A stretch of 64,000 nucleotides of DNA. It comes from Gemmatimonadales bacterium (GTDB taxonomy: Bacteria > Gemmatimonadota > Gemmatimonadetes > Gemmatimonadales > GWC2-71-9). The stretch is from contig DATJJY010000094.1 in assembly GCA_035491895.1 (NCBI GenBank), positions 33,025-97,024 on the forward strand, read 5' to 3'. The position numbers were made by a program, and so were the translations under genes. Below the pieces are notes generated by a model, which did no database searches, was not told the DNA's origin, and worked only from the letters and a program-made list of their open reading frames with translations. This document shows, one piece after another, positions 4,543-28,846 of the stretch; position 1 is the first letter of the stretch; every line of letters begins with the position of its first letter.

Positions 4543-4590
4543 ACGTGATCTTCCTCCAGAGAGAGTGCGACGGCAGTGTGGTCAGTGCTG

Positions 4591-4618
4591 GAGACTCCAG
4601 GCGCGGCGGGGTTATTCC
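4591..4618 (-). promoter_or_regulatory. Candidate ECF-type promoter for the cupredoxin-fusion gene (GGAATAA-N16-GTCTC)
   Basis: Reverse complement of 4591-4618 reads GGAATAA ccccgccgcgcctgga GTCTC. It lies ~50 nt upstream of the ATG at 4542. It mirrors the + strand copy 4 nt away. Confidence 0.45.
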
Positions 4619-4622
4619 GCCG

Positions 4623-4650
4623 GGAATAATCCCGCCGGTGCCTGAGTCTC
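4623..4650 (+). promoter_or_regulatory. Candidate autoregulated ECF-type promoter for the sigma/anti-sigma operon (GGAATAA-N16-GTCTC)
   Basis: Reads GGAATAA tcccgccggtgcctga GTCTC, ~33 nt upstream of the GTG at 4683. The geometry resembles the GGAAC-N16/17-GTCT class of ECF promoters. Confidence 0.45.
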
Positions 4651-4682
4651 CTCTGAAGGCCGACCAGACATTGTGAGGGCCG

Positions 4683-20179: not shown

Positions 20180-20749
20180 ATGGGGGTGCGCATGGAGCAG
20201 CGGATCGGCTTTGGAAAGCGCCTGGGAGCTCTGGCCCTGGACTGTGTCTTCGTCATCATCCTGTCGGTTGTCGGCGGGACGACGATCGGTGGCTGGTTCG
20301 GCGCCTACACCGGAGCCCTGACGGCCGGTGCGGCGAGCGCCGCCGCGAGCGCCTCGGGTGATGCGCAGGCGGCGGCTGCCATGGGCGGGATCTTCGGCGC
20401 TATCATCGGCATGGCCCTGGCCGCGACGGTGATCGGCACGGTGTATTTCCTGCTCGAGGGATTCACCGGGTACACCCTTGGCAAGTTCATTCTGGGGATC
20501 CGGATTGCGAGCGACGACGGGACGGCCGCCGGCATCGGCAAGCTGCTGTTTCGGTACCTGGTGAAGAACTCCAACCTGGTTTTGTCGCTGTTGGCGCTGT
20601 TCACGGGTGTGACCGCATTGGCGACACTGGGTAAAGTGGCGGGGTTGCTCATCTTCGTCGGGTGCTTCTTCACGCTCGGCATGAAGCGGCAGGCGTTCCA
20701 CGACATGATCGCGAAGACGGCGGTGTATCCGAAGGGGGCGATAAAGTAG
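20180..20749 (+). CDS. RDD-family membrane protein
   Basis: GFGKRLGALALDCVFV...YTLGKFILGIRI...GMKRQAFHDMIAKTAV matches the RDD domain pattern. The start may be the ATG at 20192. Confidence 0.85.
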   Translation: MGVRMEQRIGFGKRLGALALDCVFVIILSVVGGTTIGGWFGAYTGALTAGAASAAASASGDAQAAAAMGGIFGAIIGMALAATVIGTVYFLLEGFTGYTLGKFILGIRIASDDGTAAGIGKLLFRYLVKNSNLVLSLLALFTGVTALATLGKVAGLLIFVGCFFTLGMKRQAFHDMIAKTAVYPKGAIK

Positions 20750-20750
20750 A

Positions 20751-20870
20751 ACGGTAGGAGACGGTAGGGGGCGGTAGGAGACGGTAAAGGGAAACGGCCG
20801 AGGCAACGTTGCCCGGCCGTTTTCTCGTCTCACCCCTACCGTCTCCTACCGTTCCCTACCGTCTCCTACC
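20751..20870. repeat. ~120-bp near-perfect palindrome built from 4 x 10-bp GGTAGG-containing repeats per arm
   Basis: Left arm: ACGGTAGGAG ACGGTAGGGG GCGGTAGGAG ACGGTAAAGG. Right arm: CCCCTACCG TCTCCTACCG TTCCCTACCG TCTCCTACCG. The arms flank a central hairpin. Confidence 0.9.
20792..20824. terminator. Central hairpin AAACGGCCG(A)GGCAAC/GTTGCCCGGCCGTTT followed by a short T-run; likely terminator for the RDD gene
   Basis: ~15-bp stem with one bulge, then TTTTC on the + strand, 43 nt after the stop codon. Confidence 0.5.
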
Positions 20871-21084
20871 GCCGCGACAGCCCCACCCCGAACTGAAACA
20901 GCTCCACGCTCGTCTGATCGAGCACCTGCTGGCCGTTGAATTTCACTTCCGCGCCGGTCGAACACGTCGCCGTTTCGCGGATCGATCCGCCAGGTCATCG
21001 CGCAGATCGACAACAGCCTCGACAACCTCAACCCGTCGGGACCCGGGATCGGGCAGAGCCGTTCACTCACCCACCTGAGTTCGC

Positions 21085-21114
21085 TTGACCGCGGTGCTGG
21101 CCCCCCTCTACGTT
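21085..21114 (+). promoter_or_regulatory. Possible sigma-70 promoter for tRNA-Leu (TTGACC-N18-TACGTT)
   Basis: The -35 is a good match and the -10 is weak. It ends 9 nt before the tRNA 5' end. Confidence 0.3.
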
Positions 21115-21123
21115 TATTCCCAC

Positions 21124-21205
21124 GCCCTGGTGGTGAAACTGGTAGACACGCTGTCTTGAGGGGGCAGTGCCGTAAGGCGTCCCGGTTCGAATCCGGGCCA
21201 GGGCA
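21124..21205 (+). tRNA. tRNA-Leu (anticodon GAG)
   Basis: Hand-folded. Acceptor GCCCTGG/CCAGGGC. Anticodon arm CTGTC-TTGAGGG-GGCAG. Long variable arm. T-arm CCCGG-TTCGAAT-CCGGG. Collinear with E. coli tRNA-Leu(GAG) as I remember it. CCA is not encoded. Confidence 0.9.
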
Positions 21206-21207
21206 TT

Positions 21208-21315
21208 ACTGCTAGACGCCCAGACGCACCGGGGAAAACAGTGAACAGATAGAGATAGGTAGGCCTACCTGTCCCCCGTTTACTGTTCTCCCCGGTGCGT
21301 CTGTGCTCTAGCAGT
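21208..21315. repeat. ~100-bp hairpin element, family A copy 1
   Basis: CTAGACGCCCAGACGCACCGGGGAAAACAG...GGTAGGCCTACC...CTGTTCTCCCCGGTGCGTCTGTGCTCTAG. The arms are mutual reverse complements. It begins 3 nt after the tRNA. Confidence 0.9.
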
Positions 21316-21327
21316 GCCTGTTCTTGT

Positions 21328-21349
21328 TATATCAACAGATATTGATATA
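21328..21349. promoter_or_regulatory. Inverted repeat TATATCAA-N6-TTGATATA, candidate ArsR operator
   Basis: Perfect 8-6-8 palindrome in an AT-rich stretch, ending 8 nt before the arsR GTG. Confidence 0.6.
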
Positions 21350-21357
21350 TTTAGGAC

Positions 21358-21684
21358 GTGCCAACCGCCACCCTCCCTCACCTCGACCGCGCCACCAGCT
21401 GGTTTCACGCCCTCTCGGACCCGACCCGGCTCGAGATCGTCGTGCTGCTGTCGCATGGCGAGCGCTGCGTGTGCGAGCTGCAGGACACGCTCTCGGCGGC
21501 GCAATCGCGCCTCTCGTTCCACCTCGGCGTGCTGAAGGACGCTGGCGTAGTGACCGACCGGCGGGAAGGGCGGTGGGTGTACTACGCCCTCAATCGCGAC
21601 GTACTCGACGGGATCGCGGGGTTCGCCCAGGCCGTGAAGCCGGGGAAGCACGCGGGCAGCTGCCGCGCCGCGTGCTGCCGCTGA
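21358..21684 (+). CDS. arsR: ArsR-family arsenite-responsive repressor
   Basis: HALSDPTRLEIVVLLSHGERCVCELQDTL (CVC metalloid site in the HTH) plus a C-terminal Cys cluster SCRAACC. Directly upstream of arsM. Confidence 0.9.
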   Translation: MPTATLPHLDRATSWFHALSDPTRLEIVVLLSHGERCVCELQDTLSAAQSRLSFHLGVLKDAGVVTDRREGRWVYYALNRDVLDGIAGFAQAVKPGKHAGSCRAACCR

Positions 21685-21701
21685 TTTTTTTTCTGCAACA
21701 T

Positions 21702-21717
21702 ATCAACAAAACTTGAT
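21702..21717. promoter_or_regulatory. Second ATCAA-N6-TTGAT inverted repeat between arsR and arsM
   Basis: Same half-sites and spacing as the operator at 21328-21349. Preceded by a GGCAGC/GCTGCC stem and a T8 run just after the arsR stop. Confidence 0.45.
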
Positions 21718-21734
21718 GGACTGCGAGGATCGAG

Positions 21735-22541
21735 ATGGACGATATCAAGGAGACGGTGCGGGCACGGTACGGCTCGGCAGCGTTGCGCGTGCTGCAGGCG
21801 GGAGAGCGGGCGACGTGCGGCAGCGCGGCCACGGGATGCTGCGATCCGGTGACCACGAATCTCTACCAGGCGGCCGAAACCGAATGGCTCCCCGAGCAAG
21901 CCGTGCTCGCCTCGCTTGGCTGCGGCAACCCGACGGCGCTCGCCCAGCTCGTTCCGGGAGAAGTGGTGCTCGACCTCGGGTCCGGAGGCGGGATCGACGT
22001 GCTGCTCTCGGCACACCGCGTCGCCCCCGCTGGGAAGGCCTATGGTCTCGACATGACCGACGCGATGCTCGAGCTGGCGCGTGACAACCAGCGCAAGGCC
22101 GGCGTGACCAACGCCGAGTTTCTCAAGGGGGACATCGAGCACATTCCGCTCCCCGACGCGTCGGTCGACGTCATCATCTCCAACTGCGTGATCAATCTGT
22201 CCGCCGACAAGCCGGCGGTGCTCGCCGAAGCGTTCCGCGTCCTCAAGCCCGGCGGGCGGTTCGCCGTCTCAGATGTGGTGGTGTGCGGTGAGATCCCCGA
22301 CGCGGTCCGGCGCAGCATGGAGCTGTGGGTCGGCTGCATCGCGGGGGCGCTCGAGGAGCAGGAGTTCCGGCATCTGCTGCAGGCGGCGGGGTTTACCGAT
22401 GTCGACATCGAGCCGACGCGAATCTATGAGTTCGAGGACGCGAGGGCCGTGCTGAGCGGGGCCGGGCTCGACGCCGACACGCTCGCCCGGGAGGTGTGCG
22501 GGCGGATCAAAGGAGCGTTCGTGCGGGCACGGAAACCATGA
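21735..22541 (+). CDS. arsM: Arsenite S-adenosylmethionine methyltransferase
   Basis: N-terminal Cys pairs ([13 protein letters not shown]). SAM motif [12 protein letters not shown]. ...[12 protein letters not shown]... and ...[13 protein letters not shown]... are characteristic of ArsM. Confidence 0.92.
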
Positions 22542-22549
22542 GCTGGTAC

Positions 22550-22666
22550 CTGCACGACTAGACGCACAGACGCACCGGGGAAAACAGCGAACAGATGAGG
22601 CCGGGTAGGCCTACCTGAGACCCGATATCTGTTCTCCCCTGTGCGTCTGTGCGTCTAGTATTGCAG
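22550..22666. repeat. ~100-bp hairpin element, family A copy 2 (same orientation as copy 1)
   Basis: CTAGACGCACAGACGCACCGGGGAAAACAG...GGTAGGCCTACC...CTGTTCTCCCCTGTGCGTCTGTGCGTCTAG. About 85 of ~100 positions are identical to copy 1 by hand alignment. It starts 9 nt after the arsM stop. Confidence 0.9.
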
Positions 22667-22693
22667 TTTCCCGTCTTTTAGGTCGTAGACCTT

Positions 22694-25237
22694 TTAGTAG
22701 TCGTAGATATGATCCACCACGAGCCGCCCCCGTGTCCCTGCTGCAAGGACGTCGAGGAGATCACGCGCGTCGACCGCCAGCACGACGCGCATCCACCCGC
22801 GGTCGGTGGGGACGGCGTACGCGGCGACGACCGTAGAGCGGGGTGGCGCCTCCCAATCCCGCGGCGCCGTGCCGGTCAGCGTGACGATCTCGTTTCCCGA
22901 GACCTCGGCGACGCGCACGCGTGACGCATCCCGCGACAGGCCGAGCAGGGCATCGCGGAACGCCGCGTAGCGCGGCACGCTGAGCAGGGCGTAGCGGCGG
23001 TCGAGCCAGGCGACGCGCCGGAGATGAACCGGAGCCGTATCGACCGCGAGGGAATCGCTCCATCCCGCGACCACGACGTAGCGCTGCGCTTCGTCGGGTG
23101 AATACGCCGTCGCGGTGCCGAGTCCGATCAGCGTCGCGTAGATCGCCTTGAAGCCGTATTCCGCGGACAGCCACAGCCGGCGCTCCCACTTTCTCAGGAT
23201 GCCGGGCCCGGTCCAGGGAACGTCGGTCCAGAGGTGCACCAGCGCGTGCGCGAACGAGAACTCGTACCACCCCTTCTCGTTGATGAGCCGGGCGTACTGC
23301 GAGGCCACCGTCGCGGCGTAGCGGTCTTCCGCGGTGCCGTCGATCGGTGCGTCCTGCTCCGAGAGGCGCCCGACGGTCTCCTCGTAGAGTCCCTTCAGGC
23401 CGTATTCGACGGCGGTGCTCAGCCCGATGACGCCGAGCATCAGATGCGTGCCGAATCCCGCCGGGGAGCGCGTCCGGCTGGCGCGCCAGGTGGCGAAATA
23501 GCTGCGCCAAAACGTCCCCACCGATTGGACGTACGGGAATTCGCTGGGCGGCTTCAGTGCGGAGAGCCACCGGGCGTACGCCTCGCTCGTGTACACCAGG
23601 TCCCACTCCGGATGCGTGAGGTATTCGGCGCCTTCGTCCCGCTGATATCCCGCCACGGTGTCGAGGGCGATGCGGACCTCGCCGGGGAGCACCGCCGGCA
23701 TGTGGGCGGCGGAGACGTCGGGGACGCGGCCATCGGGGCCGGGCTCGTACAGGTCCCACAGCGTGTTGGTGAACTTGTTGGTCGGATCGACCTGCCGCTT
23801 TACGGCGAAGAGGTCGGCGGCCCCCGGGTACGCCCGCGCGAACTGGTCGCGCGTCGCGACCGGCTGATACGGCAGGTAATAGCGTCCCCCGCAAGCGATC
23901 GCGGCCTCGATCAGCTCGCGGGTCCAGCGGCCGACCTCCGTCCGGGCCGGGGCGTCGGTCCCCTGTTGGTAATAGAGGACGTAGGCGAAGACTTCCGTCC
24001 TGGCCCAGGCGAGGTCCGTCCCCGGGTCGGCGTTCGCATGGCGGATCGAGACGTTGACGGCGTTGACCTGATGGCGCTGCAGGATCTGCCGCATGCGCGG
24101 GACGAACACCGGCAGGCTGTCGGAGGGAACGAAGTACTCCTGCAGCACGTACGTGGTGCGCGCCCGCGAGGCCGGCTCCAGCTCACTGACGTCGTAACTC
24201 GCCTCGTAATTGCGCCACGTGACCGGGTGCCCTTTGAACATCAACGGATCGAGGATGTGCTGCCGCAGCCATTTGCCGATGCGCCCGCTCGTGATCACCC
24301 GGTATGCGAGCCGGTGACCCCACGACGCCTGGTCGGCGGGTTGGATCCGCTCCGGGACAGTGACCGGGAGGTCGGTGCGAACGTAGGAGACGGCGTGGGT
24401 CGTTTCGTACGCCGGTGGATAGATGTCGGAATTATGGAAGATGACGCTCGAGTCGGGCTGGACGCGCCGGCGGAAGTACGCCAGGTAGTCGGCGACGGCG
24501 AGGGTGGTATCGACCCGCTGCACGCGTGTATCGAGGGCGAGGTCCAGCGTCACATCGGCGATCACGCCGAGCGCGCCGTAGCCGCCGATGGCGCCGTAGA
24601 ACAGCTCCGGGTGCTCGGTGGGGCTGGCGCGCACGACGCGGCCGTCGGCGAGCACGAGGGTGATGGCGCGTACGGAGCGGACCACCGGTCCCTGTCCGAT
24701 GTAGCGGCCGTGGGCGTTCACCGAGAGGGCGCCGCCCACGGTGAACGTGTTGTACGTCTGCATGATCTGCACCGACAACCCGGCGGGGTCGATCGCTTGC
24801 TGCACCTCGCGCCAGCGGGTGCCGGAATGCACGGTGATGGTGCGCACCGCCGTGTCGAGCGCCACGACCCCGTGGAAATTCCGCAGGTCGAGCTGCAGTC
24901 CGTCGGGAGTGGCCGTCTGCCCGCCCATGCTGTAGCGTCCTCCGCCGATGGAGATCGGCCCGGGAGAGGCGGCCACGAGACGCGAGATCTCGTCCACGGA
25001 GCGGGGCGCGGCGACGCGGTCCATCGTGATGGGGTAGAGACCGGTTACCTCGGTCACCCGGGTGCTCGAATCGGGAAGCGTGATCACCGGGACGTCCGGC
25101 GCGCGGCAGAATCCGACGATGCTGACGCCCACACCGAACAGCAGAATCGCGGCCAGGCCCCGGCTGATATAGCGAAGCCAGCGCCTCACCCTACCTTGTG
25201 GAGTAGCGGCCTTCTTCCGGGAGCGGAACCATGCCAT
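22694..25237 (-). CDS. Membrane-anchored FAD-linked oxidase (PCMH/FAD_binding_4 type) with a ~350-aa unrecognised C-terminal region
   Basis: N-terminal TM segment LAAILLFGVGVSIVGF. FAD-binding motifs ISIGGGRYSMGGQ and ...VNAHGRY... After about residue 490 there is no motif I recognise. Confidence 0.88.
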   Translation of the reverse strand: MAWFRSRKKAATPQGRVRRWLRYISRGLAAILLFGVGVSIVGFCRAPDVPVITLPDSSTRVTEVTGLYPITMDRVAAPRSVDEISRLVAASPGPISIGGGRYSMGGQTATPDGLQLDLRNFHGVVALDTAVRTITVHSGTRWREVQQAIDPAGLSVQIMQTYNTFTVGGALSVNAHGRYIGQGPVVRSVRAITLVLADGRVVRASPTEHPELFYGAIGGYGALGVIADVTLDLALDTRVQRVDTTLAVADYLAYFRRRVQPDSSVIFHNSDIYPPAYETTHAVSYVRTDLPVTVPERIQPADQASWGHRLAYRVITSGRIGKWLRQHILDPLMFKGHPVTWRNYEASYDVSELEPASRARTTYVLQEYFVPSDSLPVFVPRMRQILQRHQVNAVNVSIRHANADPGTDLAWARTEVFAYVLYYQQGTDAPARTEVGRWTRELIEAAIACGGRYYLPYQPVATRDQFARAYPGAADLFAVKRQVDPTNKFTNTLWDLYEPGPDGRVPDVSAAHMPAVLPGEVRIALDTVAGYQRDEGAEYLTHPEWDLVYTSEAYARWLSALKPPSEFPYVQSVGTFWRSYFATWRASRTRSPAGFGTHLMLGVIGLSTAVEYGLKGLYEETVGRLSEQDAPIDGTAEDRYAATVASQYARLINEKGWYEFSFAHALVHLWTDVPWTGPGILRKWERRLWLSAEYGFKAIYATLIGLGTATAYSPDEAQRYVVVAGWSDSLAVDTAPVHLRRVAWLDRRYALLSVPRYAAFRDALLGLSRDASRVRVAEVSGNEIVTLTGTAPRDWEAPPRSTVVAAYAVPTDRGWMRVVLAVDARDLLDVLAAGTRGRLVVDHIYDY

Positions 25238-28574: not shown

Positions 28575-28681
28575 AGTCACTCCTTGCGTGTGTGAGCGCT
28601 TTGCAATCGTCTCTACCCCTGCGACGAATGAAAGGCTGGGCGATCGACATGCTTTTAAGTGCTTGATTCCATGTGCGATGG

Positions 28682-28846
28682 GATGGAGACGTCGAGACGG
28701 CGAGGGAGACGCCAACCCGCCAAGCCGCCGAAAGGACGCCAAGGAACCAGGAGCTAGGAAGGTCCTAATACCCGATTCCTGGGCCTCCACTCGGCGGCTC
28801 GGCGGCGCGGCGTCTGCCTAGTCGGCTCGCCGTCTCGGCGTCTATC
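28682..28846. promoter_or_regulatory. ~165-bp inverted-repeat cis-element in the divergent promoter region
   Basis: Right arm (28791-28846): TCGGCGGCTCGGCGGCGCGGCGTCTGCCTAGTCGGCTCGCCGTCTCGGCGTCTATC. Reverse complement of the left arm (28682-28731): TCGGCGGCTTGGCGGGTTGGCGTCTCCCTCGCCGTCTCGACGTCTCCATC. They are the same sequence apart from an ~8-nt indel and a few substitutions. Confidence 0.8.

Follow-up and report, generated by a model that had tools for sequence, protein, structure and literature searches.

Two hairpins of the same orientation stand on either side of arsR and arsM in a 64,000-nucleotide stretch of a Gemmatimonadales genome (contig DATJJY010000094.1; here called the window), and the question that they raise is whether such a bracket marks a mobile unit. 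The original prediction was that the gene pair had been mobilized or captured by recombination between the direct hairpin copies, in a manner comparable to attC, MITE, or REP elements or, alternatively, that the hairpins are insulator or terminator modules. The reading that we favor, with a probability of roughly 0.7, is that the hairpins, as sister copies, belong to a REP/REPIN-like family of palindromic intergenic elements confined to soil Gemmatimonadales, that the bracket is a by-product of two neighboring 3'-end sites, and that the element serves a role at transcript ends.

Alignment (85% column identity) and folding confirmed both hairpins (Table 1), and the genes enclosed by them are exactly arsR and arsM, at the coordinates predicted. 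The two copies are 83 to 85% identical in the same orientation, center included, versus only ~75% when aligned in reverse; with copies from other genomes, neither exceeds 78% identity. On the plus strand, copies 1 and 2 each fold into one long hairpin (-75.2 and -75.3 kcal/mol), and the minus strand folds at -77.8 and -80.6 kcal/mol; the z-scores are -11 to -12, and none of 200 shuffled sequences was as stable. Copy 1 does adjoin tRNA-Leu(GAG), starting 2 nt after it rather than 3. The tRNA gene has no encoded CCA, and its 3' end, CCAGGGCA, lies directly next to the outer left arm of copy 1 and is similar to it; this arm continues with CTAG, AGACGC octamers, GGGGAAAACAG, the center GGTAGGCCTACC, CTGTTCTCCCC, and a mirrored arm. 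Comparison across the family showed that the conserved element runs ~13 nt past each CTAG; the limits, previously drawn at 21208-21315 and 22550-22666, were moved to those of Table 1, and the stem, put at ~40 bp, was lengthened to ~45 to 50 bp.

Table 1. Features of the arsR-arsM locus, numbered from the first nucleotide of the window
Feature	Position	Strand	Basis or remark
Long hairpin, unrelated to copies 1 and 2	20749-20873	no strand	After RDD-family gene; -100 kcal/mol
3' remnant of 421-aa gene	20963-21098	+	Gene intact in relatives
tRNA-Leu(GAG)	21124-21205	+	ARAGORN; identical placement at the locus in all relatives
Copy 1, palindromic element	21207-21323	no strand	Alignment, folding, arm-core count, nhmmer, comparison with L108, L106, L105, L103, and L093
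arsR promoter-like site TTGTTA-16-TATATT	21324-21351	+	Overlaps ArsR operator palindrome ATATCAACAGATATTGATAT (21329-21348); promoter/operator kept in element-free relatives
arsR	21358-21684	+	ArsR/SmtB metalloregulator, 108 aa
Second operator-like half-palindrome ATATCAACAAAACTTGATGG	21700-21719	+	Upstream of arsM; read from sequence
arsM	21735-22541	+	Arsenite methyltransferase, 268 aa; NF008823, 351 bits versus cutoff of 263
Copy 2, palindromic element	22545-22671	no strand	Between convergent arsM and FAD-oxidase genes; missing at every orthologous locus examined
Degenerate tandem duplicate GTCTTTTAGGTCGTAGACC	22673-22691	no strand	Right of copy 2; duplicates oxidase 3' end TTTTAGTAGTCGTAGAT (22692-22708)
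FAD-binding oxidoreductase, 847 aa	22694-25237	-	Convergent with arsM; synteny anchor

Within the window, which is the 64 kb of its own genome covered here, exactly four occurrences of a 21-nt arm core were counted, one in each arm (0 expected), and an nhmmer search with the family profile returned copies 1 and 2 only. This profile was used in place of a covariance model because, when 41 copies were submitted to RNAalifold, the arms showed no variation (and were thus uninformative for covariation) and the centers could not be aligned. On the plus strand, the U-rich stretches TGTTCTTGTTAT and TTTCCCGTCTTTT lie downstream of the two hairpins; no canonical T-run stands immediately 3' of the stem in either copy, and a consensus terminator scan called neither of them a terminator. 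A search of 20.5 to 23.2 kb against Rfam in E-value mode returned only sub-threshold miRNA-precursor models, which match any long hairpin.

Several properties of the locus do fit capture of an arsR-arsM unit. The copies are direct and mutually closest and enclose exactly two genes; other gene pairs are bracketed as well, such as the NicO-like gene and the 119-aa gene found between two copies in L040 and L042; and the tRNA-Leu-to-oxidase interval differs between clades, holding cytochrome c/VanZ genes instead of arsRM in L094-L102. However, the order tRNA-Leu(GAG)-arsR-arsM-FAD oxidase was also found at seven orthologous loci (L093, L103/L104, L105, L106/L107, L108, and L109), all of which lack copy 2 and none of which has a full copy 1. 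The stop codons of arsM and the oxidase gene are 4 to 20 nt apart there, overlap, or have arsC between them; the site of copy 2 is empty in L093, L103, L105, L106, and L109 and is occupied by arsC in L108. A contig in metagenome JGI 3300045391 agrees with the window in gene order and spacing and has an identical oxidase. The DNA identity of arsRM to its counterpart in L108 (91.4%) is like that of the neighboring oxidase gene (92.0%), and this equal divergence indicates that arsRM was inherited vertically along with its flanks and not imported.

Nor did we find the machinery or the traces of mobilization. As predicted, no integrase or transposase (or other mobility gene) is present among the genes between 15.4 and 30 kb, and the window contains no second tRNA 3' end; attC core sites and a target-site duplication are likewise missing. 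The tandem duplicate GTCTTTTAGGTCGTAGACC/TTTTAGTAGTCGTAGAT does not represent such a duplication, because both of its copies lie on one side of copy 2. Among plasmid records, blastn gave none matching more than one third of the 1.5-kb block, and the matched part was the arsM coding sequence only; the arm pattern had no match in viral contigs, and an exact-sequence look-up with the ArsM of the window returned no matching record. What had been read as atypical, AT-rich operators proved to be the ordinary ArsR promoter/operator (TTGACA..ATATCAACnnnnGTTGATAT), which is conserved in relatives without the elements. Since the hairpins belong to a dispersed family and since relatives carry arsRM at this very locus without them, we do not regard them as marks of a mobile cassette, and capture through the hairpins is highly improbable; arsRM at this locus in element-free relatives is the very result that the original prediction had named as its refutation. 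The case is a caution in that direct structured repeats around resistance genes can come from a dispersed palindrome at neighboring transcript ends; it is synteny in relatives that decides such cases.

Related loci also revealed what copy 1 had replaced. Within 1 to 9 nt of the tRNA-Leu 3' end, a GC-rich stem followed by a T-run was found in L108, L105, L106/L107, and L094-L102. L103/L104 have both a left arm of the element and the terminator, with a true GC-stem plus T-run forming the element center, and L093 has only the right end of the element after tRNA-Leu. Copy 1 stands in place of the ~119-nt trailer and intrinsic terminator of the relatives, and the comparison of filled and empty sites showed replaced spacer DNA rather than an insertion with duplication. 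Given that copy 1 lies exactly where relatives terminate tRNA-Leu, we consider a hairpin acting at transcript ends the most likely role of the element, as judged from this positional equivalence. Copy 2 replaced no terminator, since the relatives have none there. Of the original readings, the alternative of insulator or terminator modules fits the evidence best, although the positional equivalence does not extend to copy 2. More generally, the family supplies natural filled and empty sites at which the replacement of terminators by long palindromes can be studied.

Two other features lie upstream of the tRNA gene. The long hairpin at the RDD-family gene has arms made of CGGTAGGAGA/CGGTAGGGGG decamers and a terminator-like core (GGCCGAGGCAACGTTGCCCGGCC plus TTTT); the core is also present in L108, with fewer decamers per arm. 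In addition, compared with its relatives, the window has lost ~1.7 kb at the site of the 421-aa gene remnant; the loss took away an OMP gene and the greater part of the 421-aa gene.

Outside the window, a search for the arm pattern in contigs representing one genome per species returned 92 stretches, nearly all from metagenome-assembled genomes (MAGs) of soil Gemmatimonadales, with 5 to 8 exact-arm loci per fragmentary MAG, and BLAST delimited 106 intervals for the element. The idea of a dispersed, structured repeat of the REP or MITE kind was borne out here, along with differences in presence and absence between lineages. The arms (~45 nt) are near-invariant and follow the consensus GGAMMKGCAAnn-CTAG-[ACGCACAG]2-4-GGGAGAACAG plus its mirror image, around centers that are variable yet self-complementary; in 55 copies, the ends read GGAMMKGCAAnnCTAGACGC...GCGTCTAGnnTTGCMKKTCC. 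The number of octamers per arm varies from two to four, and nested or partial arms occur.

The copies stand only between genes, mostly a short way downstream of a gene, in tRNA trailers, or in tRNA-operon spacers. No family copy lies inside a coding sequence, and convergent gaps are occupied in 28 of 57 cases, versus 47 of 224 for other gaps (odds ratio, 3.6; p = 4e-5). Of 113 units, 17 are at most 100 nt from a tRNA, and in tRNA operons, the spacers between tRNAs are filled by hairpins of 150 to 180 nt whose base abuts the tRNA ends; a scan of six tRNA-linked loci at the Rfam gathering threshold returned tRNAs only and no rRNA. Behind rpoD-like, mutY, and dnaN genes, copies stand at conserved orthologous sites in 6 to 9 MAGs, and the placement is downstream at all three of these aligned sites. 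Near-invariant arms are flanked there by coding sequence of 70 to 88% identity, and the centers differ but pair. At ~10 other loci, a second copy lies 0.3 to 6 kb away. With ~10 to 30 copies per genome, we roughly estimate the chance of two copies falling 1.3 kb apart at ~1%, which makes coincidence unlikely; some local pairing tendency of family copies is real, a point that counts against the favored reading.

Could the family be a purely selfish repeat, a palindrome that is mobile but non-autonomous, has no function for the host, and occupies its present positions only because insertions are tolerated there? Presence/absence differences and half-copies at one site in closely related lineages would be expected of such an element, as would the variable octamer number, the nested and partial arms, and the breaking of MAG contigs inside copies (the family explains why contigs of soil Gemmatimonadales MAGs are interrupted). 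It would also sit well with the lack of strand asymmetry and with copy 2, an extra hairpin where relatives need none. Against it, the rpoD-like, dnaN, mutY, and tRNA-operon sites are conserved in 6 to 9 species, with arms that have changed far less than the adjacent coding DNA, and this conservation of sites and arms suggests constraint or concerted evolution. Moreover, no transposase or RAYT was found in the ~0.75 Mb of element-bearing loci, and a target-site duplication was seen neither in 55 copies, beyond the conserved ends, nor at two filled/empty junctions. A tblastn search of the loci with RAYT/IS200 queries gave nothing below E = 0.5, which is weak evidence. Finally, the tRNA-Leu transcript still needs an end where copy 1 replaced the terminator. 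We therefore regard a purely selfish repeat as a possibility to be taken seriously, though not as the probable explanation.

The folding data bear on whether the element works as RNA or as DNA. Sense and antisense folding was favored at 12 loci each, with 84 and 80 G.U pairs, respectively; this strand-asymmetry test showed no bias and thus gave no support for an RNA-level role. Since both strands fold equally well, nothing points specifically to a role of the coding-strand RNA. A chromosomal protein might instead recognize the invariant arms, with their tandem CAGACGCA octamers, in duplex or cruciform form; BIME/REP elements are, in a comparable way, binding sites for gyrase and IHF. The arms are conserved in their sequence as well as in their pairing, and a fixed internal mismatch, A.A or T.T, is over-represented: the arms are unlike in 36 of 67 copies, and the TG/TG combination, which would pair, was seen in only 1 of 67. 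Both are in keeping with DNA-level binding sites, as is the equal folding of the two strands. However, we know of no candidate arm-binding protein, and a connection with transcription is the simpler explanation for a position strictly behind genes and within tRNA spacers. As a full account of the family, DNA-level binding is doubtful, but it is compatible with the other readings, and a DNA-level role for the element, or no role at all, is possible.

A second form of the element bears on RNA processing. At seven MAG loci, a long form of ~540 nt with the same arms encloses a 125-aa PF05635/TIGR02436 gene, which encodes a four-helix-bundle protein of the 23S rRNA intervening sequence (IVS) type. 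When 80 metagenome loci were picked by the PF05635 protein alone, at least one family arm was present at a fixed distance in 68 of the 75 that could be scored. The PF05635 locus adjoins mnmG in 69 of the 80 loci, in tandem in 39 and divergently in 30. A fast invertible switch was considered and rejected, as no pair with more than 85% nucleotide identity differs in orientation; the orientations go back to one or a few old inversions and not to phase variation. We also considered that the short elements might have arisen from the long form by deletion: GTGAACAGAT and TCCCCCGTTTA, which stand at the inner ends of the long form, are present in copy 1 but missing from the majority of short copies, which leaves this likeness as a suggestive lead only.

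These findings raise the possibility that the hairpins are RNase III substrates cut from tRNA-operon precursors and mRNA 3' ends, with the PF05635 protein as a trans-acting partner. Published IVS elements of the same anatomy are cut by RNase III (PMC4990558), and both the arms of the long form and the hairpin bases abutting tRNA ends in operon spacers would agree with this. On the other hand, no copy stood in or beside an rRNA gene among those checked, the long form is confined to a single conserved mnmG-linked locus with no recent movement evident, a literature search gave no PF05635 activity on such hairpins, and the similarity of inner ends does not go beyond suggestion. Processing of this kind therefore strikes us as unlikely. 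We give equally little weight to the accompanying speculation that the short hairpins are ORF-less relatives of an IVS-like element that colonized tRNA-operon spacers and mRNA 3' ends, the PF05635 protein being either a dedicated partner, as RAYT is for REPINs, or a marker of RNase III-processed hairpins. If true, it would offer the first genomic handle on the function of the very large orphan PF05635 family; the arm-flanked PF05635 genes and hairpin-filled tRNA spacers suggest that "IVS proteins" and hairpin repeats of the dispersed kind may be connected in a way that can be tested.

Comparison with the relatives shows the following history of the locus. In the ancestor, arsR-arsM already stood between tRNA-Leu(GAG) and the FAD oxidase gene. 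In the lineage of the window, one copy took the place of the intrinsic terminator of tRNA-Leu, and a closely related second copy landed in the tiny arsM/oxidase spacer, probably through local copying. The bracket therefore arises from two 3'-end sites 1.3 kb apart and not from the boundary of a mobile unit. Once transcribed, as part of the tRNA-Leu trailer or of the arsM and oxidase 3' ends, the copies would fold into a stem of ~45 to 50 bp, at which the transcript would terminate, pause, or be processed and which would protect it from 3' exonucleases. As a result, the arsR promoter may be insulated from tRNA read-through, and the convergent transcripts may be kept apart.

How does this family compare with known systems? 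Sites of the attC type are imperfect palindromes at gene ends that fold as single strands and carry the core sites R'' (RYYYAAC) and R' (GTTRRRY). The Gemmatimonadales element resembles them in palindromy, single-strand folding, and gene-end position but has no R''/L''-L'/R' core sites, with GTTRRRY absent from the ends in 55 copies. Unlike in integrons, there is no integrase among the genes of 15.4 to 30 kb and no attI, each "cassette" would have two copies and not one, and the enclosed arsRM genes are syntenic and vertically inherited. With MITEs, the family shares near-invariant terminal inverted repeats of ~45 nt on a short non-coding element, but no target-site duplication and no transposase-encoding parent with these ends was found in the loci searched. 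Rho-independent terminators are matched in their position at transcript 3' ends, copy 1 (not copy 2) lying exactly in the terminator slot of L094-L102, L105, L106/L107, and L108; the stem of the element, however, is four to five times longer, its arms are common to many unrelated sites, and the window copies lack a canonical T-run directly after the stem.

To our knowledge, a habit of occupying tRNA spacers is not a feature of the Correia elements of Neisseria, to which the family is similar as a palindromic intergenic element with terminal inverted repeats and lineage-variable presence. Correia elements (CREE/nemis) are intergenic palindromes of 100 to 155 bp with terminal inverted repeats that are co-transcribed with neighboring genes, are bound or cleaved by RNase III as hairpins, can alter the expression of those genes, and vary between strains (PMC2649163). 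The element described here differs in that it belongs to another phylum, has no sequence similarity to them and no TA target duplication, and shows no evident promoter creation or IHF site. The IVS of 23S rRNA in Coxiella and Leptospira, regarded as selfish, consists of a terminal-inverted-repeat stem around a ~120-aa S23p/PF05635 gene, with a length of ~430 to 550 nt and with ORF-less short versions (PMC4990558). A long stem of terminal inverted repeats and an optional PF05635 ORF are common to both; the sites differ, being the mnmG side, tRNA spacers, and positions behind protein genes rather than helix 25 or 45 of 23S rRNA.

Finally, REP/REPIN elements occupy extragenic DNA, for the most part on the downstream side of a coding region. 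They form hairpins from two inverted arms and a variable spacer, persist vertically at fixed sites, and are not the same in every lineage; their transcription is plausible (PMC3116915, PMC3337134, PMC3733652). The present element differs in length (~125 nt, compared with 20 to 40 nt for a REP unit), in arms built from two to four tandem octamers, in an apparently low copy number (the 5 to 8 exact-arm loci per fragmentary MAG, not hundreds), and in its only arm-flanked gene, which is PF05635: among the 92 arm-selected loci, no arm-flanked RAYT was found, and the same search recovered the arm-flanked PF05635 locus seven times. The published CGTC-tagged REPs (Di Nocera et al. 2013), too, are without a dedicated transposase, and the REP survey did not mention Gemmatimonadetes. 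The palindromes matched nothing in Rfam and were not mentioned in the literature searched on Gemmatimonadetes and REPs; they appear to constitute an undescribed REP/REPIN-like family. Like REP/REPIN elements, they are extragenic, are biased toward downstream positions, and place inverted, conserved arms around a variable hairpin spacer. Whereas a REP has a GTAG or CGTC tag at one end, CGTC is present here in every octamer when the opposite strand is read (TGCGTCTG) as well as in the terminal GCGTCTAG.

The gene layout of the original prediction, with tRNA-Leu, arsR, arsM and a convergent FAD-binding oxidoreductase gene (here, the oxidase gene), was located, as were two palindromic elements (copy 1 and copy 2) on either side of arsR-arsM (arsRM), which align in the same orientation with 85% column identity, versus about 75% for the reverse alignment. 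While the elements themselves are real, their ends had been drawn too short, as conservation reaches ~13 nt past each CTAG, and the supposedly atypical AT-rich operators turned out to be the conserved ArsR promoter/operator. As predicted, no integrase, transposase or tRNA 3'-end duplicate was found near the locus. Each copy folds as one long hairpin (−75 to −81 kcal/mol; z-scores of −11 to −12) on either strand. Over the whole 64 kb, a 21-nt arm core was counted four times (zero expected), with one in each arm; a family profile search found no further copy in the window, and no known RNA family matched copy 1 or copy 2. The two copies, which are 83 to 85% identical, centre (GGTAGGCCTACC) included, and at most 78% identical to copies in other genomes, are each other's closest relatives. 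Directly right of copy 2, the last 16 to 19 nt of the oxidase gene form a degenerate tandem duplicate; since both of its copies lie on the same side of copy 2, this is not a target-site duplication.

Features in the window (positions without a locus handle), in stretches selected by arm pattern (L001 to L092) and in relatives' loci (L093 to L109)
Feature	Position	Strand or orientation	Remark
tRNA-Leu(GAG)	21124-21205		
arsR	21358-21684	+	
arsM	21735-22541	+	
FAD-binding oxidoreductase	22694-25237	convergent on arsM	847 aa
Copy 1	about 21207-21323		extent from family comparison
Copy 2	about 22545-22671		extent from family comparison
Oxidase 3'-end duplicate	22673-22708		
RDD hairpin	20749-20873		
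RDD hairpin, counterpart	L108: about 1990-2090	reverse complement	
Site of ~1.7-kb loss	20874-21123		
136-nt 3' remnant	~20963-21098		
Long intergenic hairpins	28680-28829, 4590-4651		−88, −53 kcal/mol; z-scores −6.3, −7.7
arsC	L108:6040-6540		
GAATGCA hairpin	L093:13905-14014		
NicO-like bracketed module	L040:1957-3525, L042:6400-7605, L032:1277-4415		
Hairpin-filled tRNA spacers	L021:307-892, L061:4549-4710, L088:137-304, L053:7535-7708, L091:1939-2103, L064:5991-6149, L008:2333-2512, L002:5280-5433		
Long forms	L015:6369-6881, L027:1043-1555, L049:4791-5289, L051:5891-6396, L052:438-940, L071:2765-3272, L017:1-500		

Orthologues of the oxidase and ArsM led to eight informative loci in relatives: L093 (oxidase, 87% amino acid identity to the window), L103/L104 (ArsM, 94%), L105 (ArsM, 85%), L106/L107 (ArsM, 85%), L108 (about 92% at the nucleotide level) and L109 (likewise about 92%). 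All eight carry tRNA-Leu(GAG), arsR, arsM and the convergent oxidase gene in the same order as the window, and copy 2 is absent from every one of them. The arsM and oxidase stops lie 4 to 20 nt apart or overlap, the exception being L108, in which arsC (encoding an LMW phosphatase) sits in the slot of copy 2; L109 has neither arsC nor copy 2. Between the window and L108, arsRM (91.4% identical) and the oxidase gene (92.0%) are equally diverged, and arsRM was therefore inherited together with its flanks. Syntenic arsRM without copy 2 refutes, by the criterion set in the original prediction itself, its leading interpretation, that of a cassette mobilised through the hairpins. Viral contigs gave no arm-pattern match, no plasmid record matched more than one third of the arsRM block (the matched part being arsM coding sequence only), and membership of the attC sites was rejected on core sites, integrase and the empty-site test.

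Behind tRNA-Leu, L108, L105 and L106/L107 have an ordinary terminator (GC-stem plus T-run), L103/L104 a family left arm followed by such a terminator, and L093 only the right end of a family element. Both window copies are lineage specific, copy 1 having replaced a ~119-nt trailer plus terminator as far as the −35 element of the arsR promoter, and copy 2 a spacer of a few nucleotides. More distant loci (L094 to L102; oxidase 78 to 79% identical) lack arsRM and have a plain terminator 1 nt past tRNA-Leu; there, cytochrome c, VanZ and two small genes take the place of arsRM, so the interval downstream of tRNA-Leu is variable between clades. Between the RDD hairpin and tRNA-Leu, the window has lost ~1.7 kb relative to L108, L103, L105 and L093: an OMP beta-barrel gene is gone, as is most of a gene for 421 aa, with a 136-nt 3' remnant still present.

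Scanning a one-genome-per-species collection with a 20-nt arm pattern yielded 92 stretches, almost all from soil Gemmatimonadales MAGs, with five to eight loci per MAG, and BLAST delivered 106 family intervals. The arm consists of an outer part (GGAMMKGCAAnn), CTAG, two to four CAGACGCA octamers and GGGGAGAACAG; a centre of 30 to 45 nt, site specific in sequence and self-complementary every time, separates it from the mirrored arm. Across the 67 full copies in L001 to L092 and the window, the arm variants are GGGGAGAACAG, GGGGTGAACAG and GGGGAAAACAG; unlike AG and TG arms are paired in 36, leaving a fixed A.A or T.T stem mismatch, and TG/TG, a combination able to pair, is seen in a single copy. 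The two copies in the window belong to the AA/AG type, their mismatch being A.C. MAG contigs often end inside family copies, as expected of a repeat.

No family copy was found inside a coding region, and convergent gaps were occupied more often (28/57) than other gaps (47/224; odds ratio, 3.6; p = 4e-5). Many sites are shared as orthologues between species; they directly follow, for instance, an rpoD-like sigma gene (9 MAGs), mutY (8 MAGs) and dnaN (6 MAGs), where the arms are almost invariant next to coding DNA that is 70 to 88% identical, and where centres are altered with pairing kept. About one in seven family units (17/113) is no more than 100 nt away from a tRNA. Several tRNA operons (Pro-Arg-Val-Met-Gly-Ala, Met-Val, Ser-Ser) have a hairpin of 150 to 180 nt (−55 to −113 kcal/mol) with the element at its core, which starts a few nucleotides past one tRNA and stops a few short of the next. 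Across the tabulated tRNA spacers, hairpins of 130 to 180 nt (−53 to −113 kcal/mol) take up nearly the full length, with outer layers of the GGCTGGAGAACAGCGAACAG type around the family arms.

We infer that the hairpins act as transcript-end modules, with a role in termination or pausing, processing and 3'-end protection, because copy 1 lies exactly in the terminator slot, because the family is located behind genes and in the trailers of tRNAs, because the centre of some members is a true terminator, and because U-rich stretches come after copy 1 and copy 2 on the + strand. The alternative put forward originally, that of dedicated insulator/terminator modules, fits the evidence best, but a terminator scan called neither copy, folding is equally good in sense and antisense, and relatives need no hairpin at the site of copy 2. 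The family may also be purely selfish, bind a protein at the DNA level or serve as an RNase III substrate, and these options are not mutually exclusive. As for the pair itself, a spacing of 1.3 kb is unlikely by chance at roughly 10 to 30 copies per genome (a rough estimate), and about ten other loci have a second family copy 0.3 to 6 kb away; the simplest account is that an element was copied locally, from a 3'-end site to its neighbour. In at least two MAGs, two family copies enclose another metal-related gene pair, encoding a His-rich NicO-like metal transporter and a 119-aa Cys-rich protein.

Seven arm-selected loci carry a long form of ~540 nt: a left arm, ~100 nt, a 125-aa open reading frame (ORF) and a right arm 4 to 7 nt past the stop. 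The encoded proteins are 80 to 83% identical and belong to PF05635/TIGR02436, "23S rRNA intervening sequence protein" (E = 3e-30). Among 80 metagenome loci chosen on the PF05635 protein alone (L110 to L189), 68 of the 75 scorable ones had one or more family arms at the same fixed distance, and 69 of the 80 immediately adjoined the mnmG start, with the segment in tandem in 39 and divergent in 30. These two orientations, which fall into old clades, are consistent with recombination between inverted arms. Pairs more than 85% identical never differed in orientation, and the inversion is therefore old. ORF-bearing forms exist among the 23S rRNA intervening sequences of Coxiella (PMC4990558), which match the long form in anatomy but not in location. 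The PF05635 protein may be the family's partner, and a possible link between it and the tRNA spacers is of greater interest than the arsRM bracket.

Other hairpins were also noted. The one behind the RDD gene is unrelated to the family and shares a terminator-like core with L108; its arms hold 3.5 CGGTAGGRGR decamers each in the window versus about 2 in L108, so their growth was symmetric, with tandem repeats added to either side. Upstream of tRNA-Leu in L093, past the 421-aa gene, another hairpin family has arms of GAATGCA heptamer repeats, the same design of short tandem repeats mirrored across the arms. With two further window hairpins of other sequence, long hairpins look like a general trait of this genome's intergenic DNA.

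Neither a target-site duplication at family copies nor, in ~0.75 Mb of loci (a weak test), a RAYT or other transposase with family ends was found, and copy number is apparently low. A REP survey does not mention Gemmatimonadetes, and a literature search for palindromic intergenic repeats in this phylum returned nothing relevant. We file the family as REP/MITE-like in kind, outside every named family, and identify it as undescribed REP-like palindromes located at transcript ends. Like REPs and REPINs, it is extragenic and downstream of genes, has a variable spacer framed by inverted arms that are conserved, and persists at fixed sites while differing between lineages (PMC3116915, PMC3337134, PMC3733652). 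It also resembles the Correia elements of Neisseria, hairpins of 100 to 155 bp that are cotranscribed with the genes next to them and to which RNase III binds (PMC2649163).
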